A stretch of DNA of 64,000 nt. Source: Eledone cirrhosa (Eukaryota). Position 1 is the stretch's first letter. Each line of letters begins with the position of its first letter. A program made the translations under genes and the position numbers. The notes under the pieces are model-generated. The model saw only the letters and a list, made by a program, of their open reading frames with translations. It did no database searches and was not told where the DNA came from. This document shows, in pieces, positions 3,344 to 50,828 of this stretch. The stretch spans positions 109,802,001 to 109,866,000 of the forward strand of contig OZ024741.1 of the NCBI GenBank assembly GCA_964016885.1. Direction: 5' to 3'.

Positions 3344-3681
3344 CTGGGCTGGGTATTTAAGTGTACTACTTTAAATAGAATCATATATTATCTGAATTTA
3401 ACGAAGTACCATTCCTAGTTTTCCTCCTCATCCACGAGTGTATATCTCCCTCTCTCTCTCTCTCTCTCACTATATATATATGTATATTGGTATATATATA
3501 TCAGAGCGAACATCACGGACGCTCTATCTCAAAATTATTTTTGAAAAGCATTAGAAATGCGCAACCGGTAAAACTTAAAACCAAAACTGAATACTAACTA
3601 ATACTATTACTAATTCTCACTTATTCCTAATTAAACTATTTTTCACTGTGAACAATTTGTCAGCATTTTCTATTCCGTTTA

Positions 3682-3718
<37 letters not shown>

Positions 3719-3727
3719 AAGTTTGTC

Positions 3728-3793
3728 CTCATCAGTGACCATCCAACCGTCGTAGGCATTTCGTCGCATTAAAGGCCATATACCTCAGGTTGG
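3728..3793 (-). ncRNA. Candidate non-circularly permuted HHR
   Basis: CCAACC-TGA-GGTAT-A-TGGCC-tttaatgcgac-GAA-ATGCC-tacGAc-GGTTGG-at-GGTCA-CTGATGA-G. Confidence 0.7.
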
Positions 3794-4349
3794 TGCGAGC
3801 AACGGCTAAAATAAAGTCGGTGGGACACGTAAATAAAGGGGACGCTAGGGTAAACAAACAAAATGGTTTAAGCAGCAGAAAGTGGTGAAGAAGGAAACAA
3901 GTCCCAGATTTCTATGAATATAAATTCGGTGGAATCGTGAACGAGAGAATAAAGACCATCAAACCTGGTTGAAATGTGAGCAAGGAAAGAATTTCGCACA
4001 GGTCTAATGGGAGGAAGAAGGGGTCTGGTCTGCGAATTCGGTAAACATAAGTTCTGTGAAGTCGCAGACGAGAGAGAGAGAGAAAAAAATTCATACCGGC
4101 TTGGCCAAGTGCCCGCGAGAAAAGGATTACGGACAGGTCAAACGGGAAGAAATGGGAGGAGGAGAGGTAGTGACAGAGAGTGAGTGAGTGAAAGGTGAGG
4201 AAGAGGCTAACAGAGAGAGAGACTGCTAGAAAGGGTAGAGACACAAAGAACGAAACAGACTGGTGGCAGCGGAGGAAAAAATATATGTGTAAATATGATA
4301 ATAATGGAGCTGCGGCGCTGCAAATGGGTTACATATGAAAAAGTTTGTC

Positions 4350-4415
4350 CTCATCAGCGGCCATCCAACCGTCGTAGGCATTTCGTCGCATTAAAGGCCA
4401 TATACCTCAGGTTGG
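4350..4415 (-). ncRNA. Candidate non-circularly permuted HHR
   Basis: As 3728-3793; stem I TGGCC/GGCCG. Confidence 0.7.
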
Positions 4416-4933
4416 TGCGAGCAACGGCTAAAAAAAAGTCGGTGGGGCACGTAAATAAAGGGGACGCTAGGGTAAACAAACAAAATGGTTTAAGCAGCAG
4501 AAAGTGATGAAGAAGGAAACAAGTCCCAGATTTCTATGAATATAAATTCGGTGGAATCGTGAACGAGAGAATAAAGACCATCAAACCTGGTTGAAATGTG
4601 AGCAAGGAAGGAATTTCGCACAGGTCTAACGGGAGGAAGAAGGGGTCTGGTCTGCGAATTCGGTAAACATAAGTTCTGTGAAGTCGCAGACGAGCAGACC
4701 AGACCCCTTCTTCCTCCCGTTAGACCTGTGCGAAATTCCTTCCTTGCTCACATTTCAACCATGTTTGATGGTCTTTATTCTCTCGTTCACGATTCCACCG
4801 AATTTATATTCATAGAAATCCGGGACTTGTTTCCTTTTTCATCACTTTCTGCTGCTTAAACCATTTTGTTTGTTTACCCTAGCGTCCCCTTTATTTACGT
4901 GTCCCACCGACTTTTTTTTAGCCGTTGCTCGCA

Positions 4934-4999
4934 CCAACCTGAGGTATATGGCCTTTAATGCGACGAAATGCCTACGACGGTTGGATGGCCACTGATGAG
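4934..4999 (+). ncRNA. Candidate non-circularly permuted HHR, predicted cleavage after 4948 (AUA)
   Basis: Stem III 4943-47/4968-72, stem I 4949-53/4987-91, GAA 4965-67, CTGATGA 4992-98, outer helix 4934-39/4979-84. Confidence 0.75.
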
Positions 5000-5124
5000 G
5001 CAAACTTTTTCATATGTAACCCATTTGCAGCGCCGCAGCTCCATTATTATCATATTTACATATATATATACATATATATATATACCAATATAAATATATA
5101 TTTGCATACATATATGTGTGTGTT

Positions 5125-5164
<40 letters not shown>

Positions 5165-5233
5165 TATATATAAACATATATATACATATAAAAGATATAT
5201 ATGAAACTATATATATGTGTTTGTGGGTGGGTG

Positions 5234-6892: not shown

Positions 6893-7277
6893 ATTGTTTT
6901 AGAGTAGTGACAGTCTCACTTACTTTAATTTTCAGCAAACAGGGGAGATAAAGCTGACAGAGCTCTCTTTCGCACTTTTTGGTGCTTATCAAAGCTAACT
7001 ACTCCATCACCTGTTTGCTGAAAATGATGAACGTTTGATTCTTATAGAATTCTAGTAATAATCAGGAACTGATTATACAGAGCGGTTGCCGGTCAAGCAG
7101 AAATTGAAAATTAGAATTGGTGCTCTGAAATAGCGATATATATATGAATGTATATATAGTGTATTTTGCAATACACTGTATGCTTAATCAAAAGCATTTC
7201 GAAGACCTTACGCTATTGTTTTAGAGTAGTGACAGTCTCACTTACTTTAGTTTTCAGCAAACAGGGGAGATAAAGAT
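6893..7277 (-). mobile_element. Retrozyme-like 322-bp unit (1.2 copies) with a U3-A8 HHR at 6952-6996
   Basis: Direct repeat 6901/7223; AGCT-TTGATAA-GCAC..GTGC-GAAA-GAGAGCTCTG-TC-AGCT; 15-bp helix 6929-43/7010-24. Confidence 0.75.
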
Positions 7278-19990: not shown

Positions 19991-22223
19991 GAAGAATCGT
20001 CAACATATATCAGCTTCTACCATTCTTACACGATCGAAATGTTGCCTCTATGCCTTATTTTATAAATAATTTCATGAGAGTTATTCTGATAAACTTCCCC
20101 TTTTGTTATCTGTTCTTCACGAGTTTAAACAAAGCACCAGATTGGCGGCTAGTTTTCATCTATTTACTGTAATTTCTTAAATGTAACTGCAAATTCTATT
20201 CTGATATATTCTTCTCTCATATATCTTACCTATGGATTTCTCTTCCAGCTGCTTGCTTTTCTTAACAATACAATTTTTTAAAATTCAAAGGAACATCAAT
20301 CGTCATCTCTTCTTGAATTATATTCTCTCTGCTTTGTCCTTTTCCCTTTTCAGTAACCCCTTGCATATTAGTGGCTTTGTTGCCTTGTTTGGAGTAAACA
20401 AATTTTTTAAAAACCCACACACACTCACACACAATGTACGCTGTACATCACAATGGGAGAACAGATGTAAATATTTCGGCTGGCGGGATATCGCCTCATA
20501 TTTTGGATGTCCGTACGCTCGTCAATTTATGAAATATGGTGGAGAAGACAAGACGAATATTGTGGCTCTAAAATTATTTAAAACAAAAATGCCTGAAACA
20601 CGTAAAGACATTCTCTTATGTTTTTATTTGTCCAGTTACAGTAACACAAAGTGTATTTACACTTCAAACTGTTAAAAACAAAGCTCATAATTTAAAAGCT
20701 ATTCATATATGAACATTAAATCTAAACTATAATAAAGGAAGGTCTGCGAGACTGCGTACGGTTTATTTTTTTTATCCCGTTAGTAAAATAAGTTGGATTA
20801 CTTTGAATAAATAATGAATGAATATTACATAATTTATATACTAAATTTCGTAAACAAAAATAATTTCGTAAAAATAAATAATTTAAAATTGACTTCTTTT
20901 CAAAGTTGTACTTCCGGTATATCGTTGCCACCACCACCACCACTTCAACTACCATATTTAAAAAGAGAGAGTGTGTGATGTCAACACTTCCGGTGGCGAT
21001 CACTTAAATAAACATACTAATTTTCTGTCACTAATTTTCTCCTAATGCAGTTTATATATAATATCGTCTTTTTTAATGTATCATGGATTACGTTACTGAT
21101 TACATAAGGCAGTGTAACAACGTCTTCGTTCAATTTCTGTTTATATTGTGAATTACGATTTTATTTGATGTATCATATCTACATGTATATATACTTGCGT
21201 ATAATATCAATATACACACTACACATGCTAGCAGAAAACCACCCGAAGGGTAGTTTTTCTGTTAGTTTATATTAAGTCTTCTAATACACTATGTGATATG
21301 AAAGACTTTAATTCTTTAATTAATTACGTTGCTAAGCGAATGCACGTCATGCAACTTAGAACGTCTATATCAGTTATGTACTGCATCATACATAACATAA
21401 ATAACGACTATGATAAGTTTCTTCTCTAGGTCGAATCATAGAGCTAGTTGTCTTCCGATGAAAGGATAGAAAGTCGGAAATTTGTTAAGGAATATCGTGT
21501 GTTATATTTTGAATGTGTGTATAGAGAGCATAACAGAAAAGGTATTTGTACCTCAGTATGTTCATGTGTACGATCGAAACACAAGATAGTCCCTTGTCAT
21601 CATTCGACCGCCGGCAGTCCTAGTGGTTTCAGTATTTAAGATTGATATCAGTAGCTCCAGTGCACATGGAAATGGAAAAAAGATAAGTATTGACGTACAT
21701 GTACGTCAATACTCATCTTTTTCCATTTCTTAGTGGGCTCTAAACCCCACTGTTAGGCTAACATTTCTTCAGTCAAAAAATACGGTGAAAGCTTCTATTT
21801 TTAATTTCAAACTCGCACGCTGTTTCAAAAACATGCTTACTTGTCATATATAAAAAGAGAGGCGTGGGGGGAGTAAGGATGGAAGCAAACGGAAGTATAT
21901 TTAAATCTTTTTTCTTCTTTAATCCGACAAAGTTATTATTGAAAAAAGGAGAAAAATATTTTTTTAAAAGGGGGTTTTATAAAATATATAAAAGATATTA
22001 CCGGTTTCGGTGTCATTCATCTTATCTAATATTAAAAGTTAAGAATTAAAAATTAAAAATTAAGAGTTGAAGGTCTGTTCATATGATGTATGCACACGAA
22101 AATTCATTGCATCGATAGGTTTTGCATAGAATTTTCCTGTGTATGAATATATATATATATACCATTTGCTTTCCTTCCCTCCTTCTTCCGTTTTCCCAAT
22201 AACTTACTCAGTTATTGAACGCC

Positions 22224-22290
22224 CTGGGCGGTAGATATCTTGTCTTTAAAGCGTAGAAATATCCGAGACCCCCAGTAGACAACTTATGAG
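22224..22290 (+). ncRNA. Permuted-HHR motif with mutated core (CTTATGA)
   Basis: GATAT-C-TTGTCT-ttaaagcgta-GAA-ATATC-cgaGAc-CCCCAG-t-AGACAA. Confidence 0.6.
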
Positions 22291-22334
22291 GAAAACTCCC
22301 CTCCCCCTTCTTGCTTTCTTCGTATTCCCATTGC

Positions 22335-22421
<87 letters not shown>

Positions 22422-23403: not shown

Positions 23404-23407
<4 letters not shown>

Positions 23408-23731
23408 ACATGGCGTGCTGCGTGGTTGCAAATGGGTTACGACCAGGTCGAATGGTCTTTATTCTCTCTCGTCTACGATTTCACAGAACTTATGTTCATC
23501 GATTTCAGGGAGTTGACTCCTTTTTCCTCACTTTTCGTTGCATTACCATCTTTGATTGTTTACTGTCTCGCTCGTTCCCCCTATTTACGTGTCCCAACGA
23601 CTTTCTTTAGCCGTTGCTCGCACCAACCGGAGCTATATGGTCTTTAAAGCGATGAAATACCAATGAAGGTTGGAAGATCACTGATGAAGGACTAAATTTA
23701 TTCATATGTAACCCATTTGTAACCACGCAGC

Positions 23732-23733
<2 letters not shown>
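23404..23733 (+). mobile_element. Truncated permuted-HHR element; motif at 23623-23688; 3' tail inverted at the 5' end
   Basis: Stem I TGGTCTT/AAGATCA; GCTGCGTGGTTGCAAATGGGTTAC is inverted relative to the 3' end; homologous to 4760-5040. Confidence 0.75.
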
Positions 23734-30790: not shown

Positions 30791-31493
30791 TATAAGGAAC
30801 AAGGAGCTGTGTGGTTACTTGAAAAAGTGTATTTAGAAATGAAAGGAAAGCACAAACAAGGGACAGATCTTCTCGTCAGTTGTCTGCTGGGGGTCTCGGA
30901 CATTTCAACGCATTAAAGATAATATGTCTATCCCCAGAGAAAAAAGGCGCTGAAAACATACTGATAGGAGGGGGGCACAAGGAGCAGCACATGTATGTAA
31001 GTAACCGAGAGAGAGAGTGAGGGAGAGAGATAGAGAGATAGAGAGAGAGATAAGTCAAACCGGCGGCTGGACATAAGTCCGCGGCGTTATTGACAGCAAG
31101 ATATGGAGAGCGAAGAAAAACAAGTCTAACCTCGGCGGGAGTAGACAAAGAGAGGTAGAGACGAGAAGAAACGGAAGTAGTAAAGGAGCAGCGAGAAAGA
31201 GAGTATAAGTGAGTGGGAGAAGGAGAGAGAGCGAGAGAGGGGGAGCGAAAGGGAAAGAAAGAAAGGGAGAGGGAGGAAGGAAAAGAGTTAATAATAACAA
31301 GGGAGATGGAGAAAAAGAACAGGTCACAGCAAAAGATTAATACAAATTTATAAGGAACAAGGGGCTGTGTGGTTACTTGACACTGTATTTAGAAATAAAA
31401 GGAAAGCACAAACAAGGGACAGGTCCCCTCTTCAGTTGTCTACTGGGGGTCTCGGACACTTCAACGCATTAAAGACAATATGTCTATCCCCAG
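30791..31493 (-). mobile_element. 556-bp-unit element with permuted-HHR motifs at 30872-30937 and 31428-31493
   Basis: ~145-bp direct repeats; CTGGGG-ata-GACAT-A-TTrTCT-ttaatgcgtt-GAA-rTGTC-cgaGAc-CCCCAG-y-AGACAA-CTGAmGA. Confidence 0.8.
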
Positions 31494-31561
31494 TGCATCA
31501 ATAACTTTTGTAAGTTATTGGGGAAAGAAAAAAGGAGAGAGAAAATAAATTAAACAGAAGG

Positions 31562-31634
<73 letters not shown>

Positions 31635-31637
<3 letters not shown>

Positions 31638-32010
31638 GTATGTATAGTATATTTGGCAATATACCGTATCTTTAAGTAAAAACATTTTGAAGACCTTGCG
31701 CTATCATTTTAAAGTAGTGACTATGTCACTTACTTCATTTTTCGACAAAGGAAGTGAGAGAAGCTAACAGATTCTGTTTCACACTGTTGGTGTTCCTCAG
31801 AGCAACGTACAATTATAGAGGCTGGATTCTTATAGAATTCCAGTAATAATCAGGAACTGATTATACAGAGCGATTGCCGGTCCAGCAAACATTTAAAATT
31901 AGGGTTGGTGCTCTGAAATAGCGATATATACATGAATGTATGTATAGTATATTTGCCAATATATCGTATGTTTAATTAAAAACATTTTGAAGACCATGCG
32001 CTATCATTTT
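31635..32010 (-). mobile_element. Retrozyme-like 300-bp unit with canonical-core HHR at 31763-31803
   Basis: Direct repeat 31681/31981; GCT-CTGAGGA-ACAC..GTGT-GAA-ACAG..CTGT-T-AGC. Confidence 0.75.
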
Positions 32011-40996: not shown

Positions 40997-41447
40997 CGTT
41001 TCTGAATTTGTTTAGCAAGATTCTTTATCTGAAATCGTGTGTTGAAACCGGTATTGTTATACTTTGGGAGGGTCATGTTGCCAATAAGAAACACACGCAC
41101 CAGTTGCTTTCACTTCAATTTATTATAATAAATTTATAAATTTAGGAATTTATAAATTTCCGGTTGGTTGGTTGGTTCCACAACCAGATAGTTGTTTATA
41201 TATTGTCAAAGTTCTTTCGTCACACATTATGTGACCTCTTCAGTGACTGGGGATTCTTTTCTTTGATTTGTGCCTCTCCTTTGTTCTGTCCTACGCCATT
41301 TTGTTTCTGTGTGTGTGTTGTGTGCTCAGTCTGCGCATGCGCCACATCCGGGTGTCTGTGTGTGTTTATATTCGTTTATTTATTTGTTTATTTACATGTT
41401 ACCGGTTGGTTGTTTGTTCTATGTGCGTGTGTGTTTTCATTTTGTCC

Positions 41448-42130
41448 TTAATTGTAAGTTGTGATGTTGCTGTTCCACTCATATTTTCTATTTAATTTTG
41501 GTTGTAATTCTTTTATGTGTATTGCCTCTGTGATTTGTCTAAACATTGCGTCTTTTCTGTGTGTAGATTCTATTTTTATTTCTATGTTCTCTAATTTACC
41601 CTTATGTTCTATTTTAGCATGTTGGTAGAGTACAGATGATTCTTTACTATCTTGAAGGTCTCGCCAGTGTTCATTTATCCGTTCCCCTACACTACGAGCT
41701 GTCTCACCTATGTACACTATATTTTTGTCTCTACATTGTCCTTCAGTACATCTTATGCTATACACTACATTTCTAGTTTTACAGTTAATATGGGGGCTTA
41801 TTTTACAGGTTATACATTTCTATACAGGGGGGTCTTTGAAAGGGGTATGTCTTGCTAATAAGTCTTTTTACGGAGGTACCTGGTCTTTCTGCTATCTTAA
41901 TATTGAGTTTATGTTTATCTAAGGCCCTTCTAAATTTGTAAGCTAATTCACCTCTAGGGGTTGTATCGATGAACATTACACTCTGGTATTTATTGCTATC
42001 ATACCATGAGTTTATTCTATTAGCCTTGTTCCTAGTTCTTTCTATTCTATTCCAAAATTTGCTCCTATACAAAGGGCAGGTCCCATTTGTGTCATTATTT
42101 ACCATTTTTTCCCCATTTGGTTCTGGCTCC
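41448..42130 (-). pseudogene. PLE linker + Cys4 finger + GIY-YIG endonuclease, one frameshift near 41820
   Basis: PLYR..W..SVMFIDTTPRGEL..PPC / KCITC..NCKTRNVVYSIRC..YIGETARSVGERINEH..EAIHI..LN. Confidence 0.9.
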
Positions 42131-42789
42131 TCTATACACTCTGATTTTATCTCTCTGATTGTAACCAGAGAACTGCATACGGTGGATGAAGTGTTGTATG
42201 TGTCTCTCTAGTTCTTCGGGGTTGCACATGCGGGACACGTTTCTCATCACCCGTACCAAATCCGCAATCAGTATGTTGATTTTGGTATGGTCCGAAACAG
42301 CTGAGTTTCGGTGGATCAGATGTTTGGAAGTTATGGGTTTGGCATAATGGGAATGGAGGATTTGTTATTACCCACTCTACTACCCAAAGTATTGAGTACT
42401 TTGGTGCGTTATGGTCCACCTGGTTCCTTACCACATTTCCTTCGTTATATATATATTTAAAAATAGAATCTACACATAGAAAAGACGCAATGTTTAGACA
42501 AATTACAGAGGCAATAAACATAAAAGAATTACAACCAAAATTAAATAGAAAATATGAGTGGAACAGCAACATCACAACTTACAATTAAGGACAAAATGAA
42601 AACACACACGCACATAGAACAAACAACCAACCTGTAACATGTAAATAAACAAATAAATAAACGAATATAAACACACACAGACACCCGGATGTGGCGCATG
42701 CGCAGACTGAGCACACAACACACACACAGAAACAAAATGGCGTAGGACAGAAGAAAGGAGAGGCACAAAAACAAAGAAAAGTATCCCCA

Positions 42790-42832
42790 GTCACTGAAGA
42801 GGTCACATAATGTGTGACGAAAGAACTTTGAC
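42790..42832 (+). ncRNA. PLE mini-HHR (mirror copy 41205-41247 minus)
   Basis: GTCA-CTGAAGA-g-GTCACA..TGTGAC-GAAA-GAAC-TT-TGAC. Confidence 0.8.
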
Positions 42833-42987
42833 AATATATAAACAACCATCTGATTATGGAACCAACCAACCAACCGGAAATTTATAAATTCCTAAATTTA
42901 TAAATTTATTATAATAAATTGAAGTGAAAACAACTGGTGCGTGTGTTTCTTATTGGCAACATGACCCTTCCAAAGTATAACAATATA

Positions 42988-45325: not shown

Positions 45326-45501
45326 TAACGCGAAGAAATACCTATGATTCCTAGCAGACAACTGACGATGGATATTACCCTCTTTCGCCCATAACTTTTA
45401 TTTTCATTATACTTAATTGCAACCACACAGCTCACCATTTTATTCATATAAGTTTCCTTGTTCCCTGTGACCCGTCTCTTTTCTCTCCCCTTGTTGCTAT
45501 C

Positions 45502-45533
<32 letters not shown>

Positions 45534-46008
45534 CTTCTCCCTCTTACTTTCGCTCACTCCCTCTGCTAGTCACCTTCTCTCGGCTAGCGTGCCACTATAA
45601 CTATCTCTTTCTCGCTTCCTCTTACTTTCACTCACTCCCTCTCTGCTAGTCACCCTCTCTCCGCTAGCTCACTTCCTCCCTCGTCCGCCACTGTAAGCAG
45701 TCTCTTCTCTCGCTCACACGGCTACAGTGAAGACGTGTCTTTTTTCTCTCGTAAAACTCGCCAGAACTTATGTTCGAAATGAGTTGTTGACTTGCTATTT
45801 TTCCTCTCTTAACGTTGCTTCACACTTCGTGTCTGTTTATATTTTTTTCTCTCTCTTCCCCCCTTTTTTTATCCCAATAAGTTATTTTAGTTATTGTTTG
45901 TCCTAGGCTGAGGTATCTTGTCTCTAACGCGAAGAAATACCTATGATTCCTAGCAGACAACTGGCGATGGATATTACCCTCTTTCGCCCGTAACGTTTAT
46001 TTTCATTA
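45326..46008 (+). mobile_element. 599-bp-unit permuted-HHR element (partial motif 45326-45369, full motif 45903-45968)
   Basis: CTAGGc-TGA-GGTAT-C-TTGTCT-ctaacgcgaa-GAA-ATACC-tatGAtt-CCTAG-c-AGACAA-CTGrCGA-T. Confidence 0.8.
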
Positions 46009-46071: not shown

Positions 46072-46077
<6 letters not shown>

Positions 46078-49000
46078 ATAAATGCTCTGAAATAGCGATA
46101 TATATGTGAATATAGACATAGAATATTCGAAAATATTCTGTATGTTTATAATAAACATTTTGAAGACCTAATCGCTATAGAATAGAATACGTCACGTATT
46201 ACAATTAGATTCTCGATAAAAGCAAGGGAAGTAATCTACGCGTTTCATTCTTGTTAGAAATCTTCAGGACTACATATCCAGTGCTTTTATCGAGAATGAC
46301 ACAGCTAGAGACTTATAGAATACTTAGCTGTGTACAGGAACTGGTTTGAAAGAGCGGTTGCCGGTCCGGCAGAAATTAGAAATTGGAATAAATGCTCTGA
46401 AATAGCGATATATATGTGAATATAGACATAGAATATTCGAAAATATTCTGTATGTTTATAATAAACATTTTGAAGACCTAATCGCTATAGAATAGAATAC
46501 GTCACGTATTACAATTAGATTCTCGATAAAAGCAAGGGAAGTAATCTACGCGTTTCATTCTTGTTAGAAATCTTCAGGACTACATATCCAGTGCTTTTAT
46601 CGAGAATGACACAGCTAGAGACTTATAGAATACTTAGCTGTGTACAGGAACTGGTTTGAAAGAGCGGTTGCCGGTCCGGCAGAAATTAGAAATTGGAATA
46701 AATGCTCTGAAATAGCGATATATATGTGAATATAGACATAGAATATTCGAAAATATTCTGTATGTTTATAATAAACATTTTGAAGACCTAATCGCTATAG
46801 AATAGAATACGTCACGTATTACAATTAGATTCTCGATAAAAGCAAGGGAAGTAATCTACGCGTTTCATTCTTGTTAGAAATCTTCAGGACTACATATCCA
46901 GTGCTTTTATCGAGAATGACACAGCTAGAGACTTATAGAATACTTAGCTGTGTACAGGAACTGGTTTGAAAGAGCGGTTGCCGGTCCGGCAGAAATTAGA
47001 AATTGGAATAAATGCTCTGAAATAGCGATTAGGTCTTCAAAATGTTTATTATAAACATACAGAATATTTTCGAATATTCTATGTCTATATTCACATATAT
47101 ATCGCTATTTCAGAGCATTTATTCCAATTTCTAATTTCTGCCGGACCGGCAACCGCTCTTTCAAACCAGTTCCTGTACACAGCTAAGTATTCTATAAGTC
47201 TCTAGCTGTGTCATTCTCGATAAAAGCACTGGATATGTAGTCCTGAAGATTTCTAACAAGAATGAAACGCGTAGATTACTTCCCTTGCTTTTATCGAGAA
47301 TCTAATTGTAATACGTGACGTATTCTATTCTATAGCGATTAGGTCTTCAAAATGTTTATTATAAACATACAGAATATTTTCGAATATTCTATGTCTATAT
47401 TCACATATATATCGCTATTTCAGAGCATTTATTCCAATTTCTAATTTCTGCCGGACCGGCAACCGCTCTTTCAAACCAGTTCCTGTACACAGCTAAGTAT
47501 TCTATAAGTCTCTAGCTGTGTCATTCTCGATAAAAGCACTGGATATGTAGTCCTGAAGATTTCTAACAAGAATGAAACGCGTAGATTACTTCCCTTGCTT
47601 TTATCGAGAATCTAATTGTAATACGTGACGTATTCTATTCTATAGCGATTAGGTCTTCAAAATGTTTATTATAAACATACAGAATATTTTCGAATATTCT
47701 ATGTCTATATTCACATATATATCGCTATTTCAGAGCATTTATTCCAATTTCTAATTTCTGCCGGACCGGCAACCGCTCTTTCAAACCAGTTCCTGTACAC
47801 AGCTAAGTATTCTATAAGTCTCTAGCTGTGTCATTCTCGATAAAAGCACTGGATATGTAGTCCTGAAGATTTCTAACAAGAATGAAACGCGTAGATTACT
47901 TCCCTTGCTTTTATCGAGAATCTAATTGTAATACGTGACGTATTCTATTCTATAGCGATTAGGTCTTCAAAATGTTTATTATAAACATACAGAATATTTT
48001 CGAATATTCTATGTCTATATTCACATATATATCGCTATTTCAGAGCATTTATTCCAATTTCTAATTTCTGCCGGACCGGCAACCGCTCTTTCAAACCAGT
48101 TCCTGTACACAGCTAAGTATTCTATAAGTCTCTAGCTGTGTCATTCTCGATAAAAGCACTGGATATGTAGTCCTGAAGATTTCTAACAAGAATGAAACGC
48201 GTAGATTACTTCCCTTGCTTTTATCGAGAATCTAATTGTAATACGTGACGTATTCTATTCTATAGCGATTAGGTCTTCAAAATGTTTATTATAAACATAC
48301 AGAATATTTTCGAATATTCTATGTCTATATTCACATATATATCGCTATTTCAGAGCATTTATTCCAATTTCTAATTTCTGCCGGACCGGCAACCGCTCTT
48401 TCAAACCAGTTCCTGTACACAGCTAAGTATTCTATAAGTCTCTAGCTGTGTCATTCTCGATAAAAGCACTGGATATGTAGTCCTGAAGATTTCTAACAAG
48501 AATGAAACGCGTAGATTACTTCCCTTGCTTTTATCGAGAATCTAATTGTAATACGTGACGTATTCTATTCTATAGCGATTAGGTCTTCAAAATGTTTATT
48601 ATAAACATACAGAATATTTTCGAATATTCTATGTCTATATTCACATATATATCGCTATTTCAGAGCATTTATTCCAATTTCTAATTTCTGCCGGACCGGC
48701 AACCGCTCTTTCAAACCAGTTCCTGTACACAGCTAAGTATTCTATAAGTCTCTAGCTGTGTCATTCTCGATAAAAGCACTGGATATGTAGTCCTGAAGAT
48801 TTCTAACAAGAATGAAACGCGTAGATTACTTCCCTTGCTTTTATCGAGAATCTAATTGTAATACGTGACGTATTCTATTCTATAGCGATTAGGTCTTCAA
48901 AATGTTTATTATAAACATACAGAATATTTTCGAATATTCTATGTCTATATACACATATATATCGCTATTTCAGAGCATTTATTCCAATTTCTAATTTCTG

Positions 49001-49259
49001 CCGGACCGGCAACCGCTCTTTCAAACCAGTTCCTGTACACAGCTAAGTATTCTATAAGTCTCTAGCTGTGTCATTCTCGATAAAAGCACTGGATATGTAG
49101 TCCTGAAGATTTCTAACAAGAATGAAACGCGTAGATTACTTCCCTTGCTTTTATCGAGAATCTAATTGTAATACGTGACGTATTCTATTCTATAGCGATT
49201 AGGTCTTCAAAATGTTTATTATAAACATACAGAATATTTTCGAATATTCTATGTCTATA

Positions 49260-49263
<4 letters not shown>
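46072..49263. repeat. 310-bp retrozyme-like array: ~3.1 units minus then ~7.2 units plus, one HHR per unit
   Basis: Period 310 (46072, 46382, 46692, 47002); HHRs minus at 46231, 46541, 46851; plus at 47237 + 310n (n=0-6). Confidence 0.95.
47237..47279 (+). ncRNA. Minimal type I HHR with palindromic stem III; predicted cleavage after 47273 (GUA)
   Basis: GTAGTC-CTGAAGA-tTTCT.AGAAt-GAAA-CGCG-TA-GATTAC; distal 15-bp helix 47214-28/47286-300. Confidence 0.9.
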
Positions 49264-49302
<39 letters not shown>

Positions 49303-49572: not shown

Positions 49573-49574
<2 letters not shown>

Positions 49575-50173
49575 AACATGAGAAGAAAGAAGAATACTGC
49601 GTGGTTGCACATGGGTTACATATGACAAAATTAGTCCTTCGTCAGTGATTTGCCGACCATCATTGATATTTCATCGCATTAAAAATCATATACCTCAGGT
49701 TGGTGCTAGCAATAACTAAAAAAAGCTATTGGGACCAGTAAATCGCGTAAAGCGAGGGGGACAAGTAAACAACATAGAAGGATAAAAGCAAACCAAAGAT
49801 AGGAAAATAAACAAGCAACATGGTTATCTGGTCAGCATAAACTGGGTGGATTTCATGAACGATCAAGATACAGACCGTCCGACGTGAGTGAGATGTGAGC
49901 AAGAAGAGACCCCACTACTAGCCAAACGGGAGGAAGTGAGAAGGGGAGACACAGAGAGTGAGTGAGTGGAAGTGCGAGGAAGAGGTCAGTCGAGAGAAAG
50001 TGTAACTGACAGAGGGGGCGAAAGAAGGTGAGAGCAACAGAGAGAACGGGGAAGCAGTAAGAGAGAAACAGACAAACGCAGCCGAGGTAAATATATATAA
50101 AAAACATGAGAAGAAAGAAGAATACTGCGTGGTTGCACATGGGTTACATATGATAAAATTAGTCCTTCGTCAG
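49573..50173 (-). mobile_element. 528-bp-unit permuted-HHR element; intact motif 49638-49703
   Basis: CCAACC-TGA-GGTAT-A-TGATTT-ttaatgcgat-GAA-ATATC-aatGAt-GGTCGG-c-AAATCA-CTGACGA-A; direct repeat 49573/50101. Confidence 0.8.
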
Positions 50174-50202: not shown

Positions 50203-50828
50203 ATTAGAAATGTAAGCTATCGCCGTATTTTCACTAAAGAAATTAAAGAAATTATTTAGCCTGATAGTGGGGTTAAGAACCCTCGGAGAAATGGAAAAAA
50301 ATGAGTATTGACGTTCATGGGAATCGAACACACATCTGAGGTTATACAGACCACTGTGCTACCATTACACCAACACATCACCCGTCTTCTTCCATTCAAA
50401 TTAGAAGTTATAATCTTAGCAAGTGTAATGTCAAGTAAGAATATTTTCGAAACAGCGAACGAGTTTGAAATTAGAAATATAAGCTATCGCCGTATTTTCA
50501 CTAAAGAAATTAAAGAAATTATTTAGCCTGATAGTACACTTGCTATTTAGCCTGATAGTACATTTGACATTATACTTGCTAAGATTATAGCTTCTAATTT
50601 GAATGGAAGAAGACGGGTGAAGTGTTGGTATAATGGTAGCACAGTGGTCTGGATAACCGCAAATGTGGGTTCGACTCACATGTACGCCAATACTCATCTT
50701 TTTCCATTTCTCCGAGGGTTCTTAACCCCACTATCAGGCTAAATCATTTCTTTAATTTCTTTAGTGAAAATACAGTGATAGCTTATATTTCTAATTTCAA
50801 ACTCGCTCGCTGTTTCGAAAATATTCTT
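50203..50828. mobile_element. 267-bp unit, tandem then inverted, with an internal tRNA-like module; relative at ~21670-21835
   Basis: Period 50203/50470; TGGTATAATGGTAGC..GGTTCGACTC..TTTTT at ~50622-50703. Confidence 0.75.

Follow-up and report, generated by a model that had tools for sequence, protein, structure and literature searches.

Hammerhead ribozymes of types I-III are circular permutations of one order of their conserved blocks, and the opposite, non-circular order, in which the cleavage-site block is followed by GAAA and then by CUGAnGA (S-G-C), has been named type SGC (Eckert 2023, PMC10085705). According to the same source, type SGC is known from metatranscriptomes and type CSG from metagenomes, not from the genomes of known organisms. 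Type I hammerheads are carried by the non-LTR retrozymes, non-coding repeats of about 300 bp whose RNA circles have been demonstrated by experiment (Cervera and de la Pena 2020, PMC7229834) and for which lengths of 51-972 bp have since been given (Li et al. 2026, bioRxiv 10.64898/2026.07.22.740005). Among the Penelope-type elements (PLEs), the Naiads are credited in the available text of Craig (2021, PMC8557442) with (TA)n targets and with only 'core' or 'half core' matches, but no canonical hammerhead. The insertion signature described there comprises partial tandems, inversions, a tail of 30-40 bp and a (TA)n bias, and the PLE tail has been explained by two internal start sites for the RT (Frangieh 2024, PMC11167929). 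In the literature covered, which includes few subscription journals, the terms type-SGC and type-CSG occur only in PMC10085705, and nothing closer was found for Naiad ribozymes.

Here we describe a non-coding unit of 622 bp and its relatives in the genome of Eledone cirrhosa. All coordinates refer to the window, which is the whole stretch of 64,000 nucleotides that was analyzed. The reading that we favor, with a probability of roughly 0.7, is that these units are passengers likely derived from the terminal repeat of a Naiad, with PLE-type ends and a predicted hammerhead of non-circular order. Among the four units named in the original prediction made for this DNA, only the one that begins near 3715 has two complete ribozyme motifs around one unit. 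Its features are as follows.

3711..4694, minus strand: partial tandem in direct orientation, made up of a 622-bp unit and some 355-360 bp of copy two (self-BLAST)
4694..5068, plus strand: inverted, 5'-truncated arm that reaches the long 3' end, including the tail
3720..3829, minus strand: permuted hammerhead copy 1, predicted cleavage after 3779 (descriptor and covariance model)
4342..4451, minus strand: permuted hammerhead copy 2 (descriptor, alignments and covariance model)
4450-4422, minus strand: copy 2, 5' strand of the outer helix and hairpin P0
4420-4417, minus strand: copy 2, 5' strand of helix II
4415-4410 with 4370-4365, minus strand: copy 2, helix P
4406-4402 with 4380-4377, minus strand: copy 2, helix III
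4401, minus strand: copy 2, H17, predicted cut
4400-4396 with 4362-4358, minus strand: copy 2, helix I
4389-4385, minus strand: copy 2, 3' strand of helix II
4384-4381, minus strand: copy 2, GAAA
4357-4351, minus strand: copy 2, CUGAUGA
4898..5008, plus strand: third permuted hammerhead copy, within the inverted arm; cut predicted after 4948
3779..4400, minus strand: predicted 622-nt monomer RNA between both cleavage sites, pyrimidine-rich and without a long ORF, which would be released and might circularize
5017..5056, plus strand: PLE-type tail of about 40 nt that separates the short 3' end from the long one; an internal copy lies at 4332-4293 on the minus strand
3685..3714, no strand: (TA)15 tract at the short 3' end
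5057..5216, no strand: TA-rich tract at the long 3' end

Self-BLAST places the direct repeat of 355 bp at 3715-4069 and 4337-4691 (98% identity, 7 mismatches), with a period of 622 bp. The tandem stops at the short 3' end, 25 nt past the start of CUGAUGA, and is 5'-truncated near 4694. To its left, the sequence at 3504-3684 (plus strand) matches loci L073 and L079 by eye and seems to be the 3'-terminal part of a Neptune-like family that carries a variant hammerhead of type I-like form, and the 622-bp unit appears by eye to have been inserted in the (TA)n tail of that family.

On the sense strand the motif reads helix III-UH-helix I, then GAAA-helix III, then helix I-CUGAnGA, which is the S-G-C order. 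A strict descriptor for this order matched four times in the window and never in 30 shuffles, and a covariance model found 10 clear motif copies plus one weak match (E 0.12). Base pairing was assessed in a gapless alignment of 61 distinct copies (A1, from which 7 of 68 rows were left out as 5'-truncated) and in an alignment of 21 family representatives (A2, from which 28 of 138 rows and then 6 of 27 cluster representatives were left out). In A1, 92.7% of the cells of helices I, II, III and P are paired, with double changes in 17 of 21 pairs, compared with 30-44% paired in slid controls; A2 yields 89.3% and 22 of 32 pairs. The outer helix and the upstream hairpin, paired at 78.6% and 90.5% in A2, both covary as well. 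The outer helix is the weakest of these elements (mean best helix 4.4 versus 3.7 when shuffled). As the alignment rows are related, the shuffle control does not amount to a probability. Since GAAA and CUGAnGA were required by the search patterns, their invariance in the alignments is circular, whereas the helices and UH were not forced. Specifically, U16.1 is invariant in all 61 rows, and H17 is a G in only one of them.

Helix II departs from a simple hairpin. A full helix II downstream of CUGAnGA was considered and rejected, given that only 40.6% of cells are paired over four pairs and that, beyond the first pair, the three that would follow are largely missing. Helix II instead draws on two strands. 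Its first pair joins the nucleotide that follows CUGAnGA to the one that precedes GAAA, and the other four pairs are supplied by a strand located 10 nt upstream of helix III. The 10.1-11.1 pair is kept in 58 of the 61 rows of A1, as four pair types, and in 15 of the 21 representatives of A2. Between helices III and P, a 3-nt bulge is followed by GA facing GA (by eye; absent in one family), a loop that appears to resemble a kink-turn. Helix P, joined to helix III by this bulge, would return the chain to close helix I, and the modeled fold is pseudoknotted. Helices P and III form a local hairpin in the centroid folds of three of five copies, and single-sequence folding, a method that cannot model pseudoknots, is unremarkable (z of -1.6 to +1.2). 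Rfam, run on the window at the gathering threshold and on 3600-5150 by E-value, returned no ribozyme family, its matches being confined to artefacts of hairpins and TA tracts and a single tRNA-like repeat. The motif combines CUGAnGA, GAAA and UH with helices I-III, the core letters being those forced by the patterns, and as predicted from these features it is likely a working hammerhead.

Genome-wide searches covered the 3.0-Gb assembly, whose contigs are of chromosome size. The checks proposed along with the original prediction include a census of copies across the genome and a search for an autonomous RT/GIY-YIG element that carries the motif. For the census, a core pattern in which GAAA, a GA and CUGAnGA stand at set distances matched 25,677 times, compared with 347 for a reversed control; a 21-mer of family A has 975 exact matches and its control 0, while families D and E have 868 and 1274 candidates, respectively. 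Aligned copies of family A are only 1.4% off the commonest letter, indicating that its burst is recent, and this low divergence bears out the recent event that had been proposed.

A 171-base query produced 1882 candidates, of which 40 were scored, at 98-100% identity. In 28 loci other than the one described above, the 5' ends are freely variable, several copies extend past one unit, the flanks are unrelated and inverted arms occur in seven. All 32 terminal 3' ends listed for these loci fall either at +25 (5) or at +60 to +77 (27) from the start of CUGAUGA, the query for 3' ends having held part of the tail, which favors the long ends. These ends run into (TA)n in 29 of 32 cases and into a CA-containing microsatellite in the other 3. 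Two fixed 3' points about 40 nt apart mark a tail of the PLE type, in keeping with the 30-40 bp described for such tails, and the remaining parts of the PLE-type insertion pattern are also present, namely a pLTR-forming partial tandem, variable 5' truncation and a 5' inverted truncated copy. The bias toward (TA)n targets is present too, although it is also a Neptune trait and so is not diagnostic of derivation from Naiads. Rfam finds no tRNA, no ribozyme and no other family in the units, and they encode no ORF with an N-terminal GIY-YIG and RT, so they are not autonomous Naiads. We regard it as very likely that they are non-coding mobile elements of the non-autonomous PLE type.

The window holds further copies, listed below by family.

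30791..31563, minus strand: family E unit, period 556, direct repeat 30795-30937 / 31353-31493
31419-31527 and 30863-30959, minus strand: family E motif copies, the former a GAAG variant and the latter missing the upstream hairpin
45326..46008, plus strand: family D unit, period 599, direct repeat 45326-45409 / 45925-46008
45868-45977, plus strand: downstream family D motif, with CUGGCGA; the upstream motif is cut by 5' truncation
49573..50173, minus strand: family C unit, period 528, direct repeat 49573-49645 / 50101-50173
49629-49738, minus strand: complete family C motif; the upstream copy is cut by 5' truncation
23404..23733, plus strand: family B copy, newly recognized, with motif 23588-23697 and a 25-bp inverted tail piece at 23416-23440
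22160..22340 (approximate bounds), plus strand: short E-like copy, newly recognized, with motif 22190-22299 and its core changed to CUUAUGA

Most of what had been claimed for the four units recognized earlier is reproduced. Their lengths of 622, 556, 599 and 528 are recovered from motif spacings and cuts and from self-BLAST, and in all four the terminal redundancy overlaps the motif. The sense-strand middles are indeed pyrimidine-rich (0.70-0.77, where 142 bins across the window have a median of 0.53 and a 90th percentile of 0.60), and the absence of an ORF holds, in that the longest ATG-started frames of 33-95 aa are treated as chance frames. Each unit also touches a (TA)n tract, as claimed, against a background of 14% of the window within 30 nt of one. 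Two details change. Inversions had been ascribed to two of the four units, and only that at 3715 has a self-inversion (4694-5068); the element that had been bounded at 30791-31493 reaches about 31563. A size class of 530-620 bp is too narrow for copies elsewhere, where 26 of 30 spacings are 445-706 bp and the remaining four are 890-2147 bp. Core changes are present at 3 of the 11 motif positions in the window.

Several other repeats were seen. At locus L194:1615-4380, five motif copies lie in tandem with spacings of 654-706 bp. The string AACCACRCAGC recurs, by eye, in the tails of families B, C, D and E and of the L182/L185 family, and could be an RT recognition site. In the window, a canonical PLE has left a remnant in the form of an inverted repeat at 41052-41585 and 42451-42985, which carries a minimal type I hammerhead of the ordinary kind (cores at 41243, minus strand, and 42794, plus strand). 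A satellite of 310 bp occupies 46072-49272, where two inverted blocks hold 3.1 and 7.3 copies of virtually the same sequence; diverged relatives lie at about 7041-7135 and 31851-32004. Finally, 50203-50828 and 21697-21847 belong to a repeat with a tRNA-like part (Rfam tRNA at 50309-50379) that is probably a tRNA-derived SINE.

The link to Naiads comes from the published consensus ends, of which we read the last 330-400 bases for 53 of 54 sequences (PMC8557442 supplement, File S5) by eye. Non-circularly permuted hammerheads were recognized in this way in 17 of the 53 ends. Eleven are S-G-C (Bfor, 3_Chem, Amil, Aacu, Anas, 2_Movir, Obim, Ovul, Esco, Ptep and Smim) and six, all of nematodes, are C-S-G (1-3_Nbra, Hcon, Hpol and Asuum). 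In four ostracod ends GAAA precedes CUGACGA and the cleavage site was not resolved by eye, and in the other 32 no hammerhead was seen by eye in the stretch displayed. By the same reading, Naiad_Obim and Naiad_Ovul share four features with the units: the hairpin upstream, a gap of 10 nt ahead of helix III, the bulge-GA loop, and a distance of 23 nt between GAAA and CUGAUGA. The nucleotide that follows the core appears not to pair with the one before GAAA in Bfor, 3_Chem, Amil, 2_Movir and Obim, where the upstream strand supplies the pair. Across ctenophore, cnidarian, nematode, arthropod and mollusc Naiads, CUGAnGA, GAAA and UH are kept by eye while the stems are unrelated. Two short motifs from the Octopus Naiads, searched for in the assembly, gave 0 matches and 1 match, the level of the control. 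To judge from the published ends, derivation of the units from the terminal repeat of a Naiad, a clade that the original prediction did not name, is probable, and their motif appears to be a ribozyme that has been overlooked in Naiads.

Taken together, these readings incline us, with less assurance, to a broader proposal. The Naiad clade may use non-circularly permuted hammerheads across at least five animal phyla (SGC in a ctenophore, cnidarians, spiders and cephalopods, and CSG in nematodes), and the approximately 25,000 copies found here may be a family-rich class of passengers with circular RNA. Ribozymes of this kind would then be known for the first time from cellular genomes and with a biological role, and the split helix II and kink-turn topology could link CSG and SGC through circular permutation at a side helix. 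The 3' end of Naiad-1_Movir in that supplement looks like a twister ribozyme, and bivalve and hemichordate Naiads have a different conserved 3' motif, without the hammerhead core, that is a candidate for another ribozyme.

The second check, the search for an autonomous RT/GIY-YIG element carrying the motif, found none in the assembly. A search for GIY-YIG scored 150 of 10,595 candidates, and the endonuclease lies at the end of the frame in all 60 loci that were read; that endonuclease, used as a profile, retrieved 150 proteins, and among nine examined for an N-terminal position none was a Naiad. Several of the GIY-YIG loci are Neptune-like by their CX2-5CxxC linker and end in (TA)n. Copies of this kind with stop-free frames reach 938, 844 and 1096 aa, their pLTRs carry ordinary minimal type I hammerheads (by eye), and one family has two ends about 40 nt apart (by eye). 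Copies of the motif in 4 of 20 Neptune-like loci look like separate insertions, and at the one locus checked, L067, the motif copy lies beyond the 3' end common to its family. No 3' sequence common to the units and the Neptune ends was seen when looked for by eye.

Naiads in this assembly are decayed. Three protein searches returned 80, 144 and 128 matches, all short or broken (the second and third scored 150 of 213 and 150 of 1272 candidates), and no intact Naiad was among them. The frames of the remnants are at most about 300 aa with many internal stops, and a codon pattern for the Naiad DKA motif has a single match in the assembly, in a decayed Naiad. Cephalopod Naiads have been described as remnants (Craig 2021, PMC8557442). 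Three homolog searches with the remnants found no relatives, Pfam gave nothing above its cut-off, and in the Atlas they fall in unnamed eukaryotic clusters, with a 15% HTH_animal lead. In the decayed family, a 3' motif that is S-G-C-like was seen at 8 of the 30 loci (L204, L214, L215, L217, L220, L222, L231 and L206). This motif, which has a U3-A8 core and a hairpin before GAAA, differs in build from that of the units and is not detected by their covariance model; it is similar in build to the published end of the spider Naiad_Ptep. A young composite repeat of 1.46 kb, 98-99% identical at three loci (L234:3801-5265, L235 and L236), includes a decayed Naiad RT fragment; it was considered as the autonomous partner and rejected, being a composite without the motif. 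The proposal that PLE enzymes may mobilize the units in trans draws on the insertion anatomy and on the published Naiad ends as read by eye; no motif-bearing autonomous element was found in the assembly. The origin of the units points to Naiads, and what drives them at present could be a Neptune or a Naiad missing from the assembly.

The 3' ends, truncation, inversion and (TA)n context together indicate Penelope-type insertion, and a mechanism can be proposed around it. A partial tandem would be transcribed, and each repeat would fold into a pseudoknotted hammerhead with its cleavage-site block, GAAA and CUGAnGA. Helix P, joined to helix III by the 3-nt bulge with G-A pairs, would bring the chain back so that helix I closes, and the upstream strand of helix II would be held by the outer helix and hairpin. 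Cuts after UH at two successive copies would release the 622-nt monomer, which could be ligated to a circle. A PLE protein with RT and GIY-YIG would then act in trans, nicking (TA)n DNA and starting reverse transcription at either of two internal sites about 40 nt apart; copying more than one unit would yield partial tandems and 5' inversions. The candidate enzyme would be a low-copy or unassembled Naiad, or a Neptune-like element with a long open frame. In other systems, cleavage by the hammerhead was not needed for insertion of an anole PLE in vitro (PMC11167929), and only one of nine Xenopus retrozyme dimers was cleaved (bioRxiv 2026.07.22.740005).

A circular intermediate in this scheme stands, in our estimate, at even odds. 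All three arms of the 3715 locus share one private base (3 of 47 letters, with the 29 other loci having the common base), which fits repeated copying of one unit, as from a circle. It is a single site, however, and the same pattern would be inherited from a parent locus that had arisen in this way. Apart from that private site, the minor alleles shared within loci (17 observed versus 12.9 expected) do not separate a circle from a linear multimer. Three of the four sequencing runs listed, consisting of contigs of unrecorded kind, gave deep coverage that does not bear on expression or circles. Viroid-like rods were also considered and set aside, the circular minimum-energy folds of the units being weakly paired (33-47%).

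The strongest competitor to the favored reading differs from it only in the enzyme: Neptune-like PLEs, with a C-terminal endonuclease, would mobilize the units whatever the origin of the motif. We place this at slightly worse than an even chance. Its appeal lies in the long stop-free frames, the (TA)n ends and the family with ends about 40 nt apart, and in the contrast between Naiads that are all decayed and a family A that has diverged by only 1.4%. Set against this are the ordinary minimal type I hammerheads of the Neptune pLTRs themselves (by eye), the apparently separate insertions behind the motif copies in 4 of 20 loci, and the failure to see a common 3' sequence. Far less probable are ordinary solo LTRs, SINEs, satellites or segmental duplications, the first and last of which had been named in advance as what the copies might prove to be. 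Direct terminal redundancy and the five tandem copies at L194 could suggest them, but the end pattern of fixed 3' ends, variable 5' ends, inversions and unrelated flanks refutes this reading to the point where we give it almost no weight, and Rfam, which finds no tRNA or other family in the units, also speaks against it.

The remaining alternatives concern the motif rather than the insertion. It is unlikely that the structure is simply a conserved signal to which the PLE enzyme binds, or a kink-turn module of C/D-like type, with cleavage lost or irrelevant, a linear multimer as template and no circles. The core changes at 3 of 11 window positions would suit such a signal, as would the insertion of the anole PLE in vitro without a need for cleavage (PMC11167929), but a binding signal would not readily account for the persistence, by eye, of CUGAnGA, GAAA and UH across five groups of Naiad hosts with unrelated stems, nor for the single G among 61 rows at H17. 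The bulge-GA loop, which appears to resemble a C/D kink-turn, would suit a binding signal as well. Somewhat less likely again is cleavage solely between copies, whereby blocks from neighboring repeats, such as S and C of one copy and G of the next, would come together as an unknotted hammerhead of the classical kind. Covariation is blind to pairing within versus between copies, partial tandems are common in the genome, and minimal PLE hammerheads act as dimers (PMC4209133). Nevertheless, helices P and III form a local hairpin in three of five centroid folds, the spacing is constant down to single bases, cleavage has been reported for SGC and CSG ribozymes as monomers (PMC10085705), and the copies in full-length Naiads are 3-4 kb apart.

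If the motif cleaves, it would fill two gaps. One is that of the Naiads, which have no canonical hammerhead, and the other is that of permutation, as no SGC or CSG ribozyme has been placed in the genome of a known organism and non-circular permutations have had no model. Rfam and standard descriptors miss the motif, and censuses of retrozymes and ribozymes in invertebrate genomes are therefore probably far too low. The 622-nt unit would also offer a minimal non-coding PLE substrate for addressing the circular-template origin of partial tandems and the mobilization of passengers across clades.

Among known systems, the non-LTR retrozymes are like these units in being non-coding, in carrying one hammerhead-type motif per unit, in forming tandems, and in their proposed PLE origin and mobilization in trans. 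The units differ in having S-G-C rather than type I order, which a type I descriptor would miss, in their length of 445-706 bp, and in their explicit PLE tails and inversions. Of the retrozyme-like character suggested in the original prediction, the analysis supports non-coding mobile units with PLE insertion anatomy and a permuted hammerhead-type motif. The units seem to resemble retrozymes in their working, and because they lack a type I hammerhead we do not file them as such. With the type-SGC and type-CSG hammerheads they share the conserved core and pseudoknotted helices I-III, and with SGC the order of the blocks as well. In the published type SGC, however, helix II follows CUGAnGA, whereas in the units only its first pair does and the rest is upstream; the units also add the outer helix, hairpin P0 and helix P. 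MRC1 and similar Chlamys elements are likewise non-autonomous PLE derivatives with pLTRs and head-to-tail copies, but belong to green algae and use CA or C targets, and the available text reports no hammerhead in them (PMC8557442). Naiads share with the units the pLTR partial tandems, 5' inversions, tail of 30-40 bp and (TA)n targets (PMC8557442); they encode an N-terminal GIY-YIG and RT, whereas the units encode nothing.
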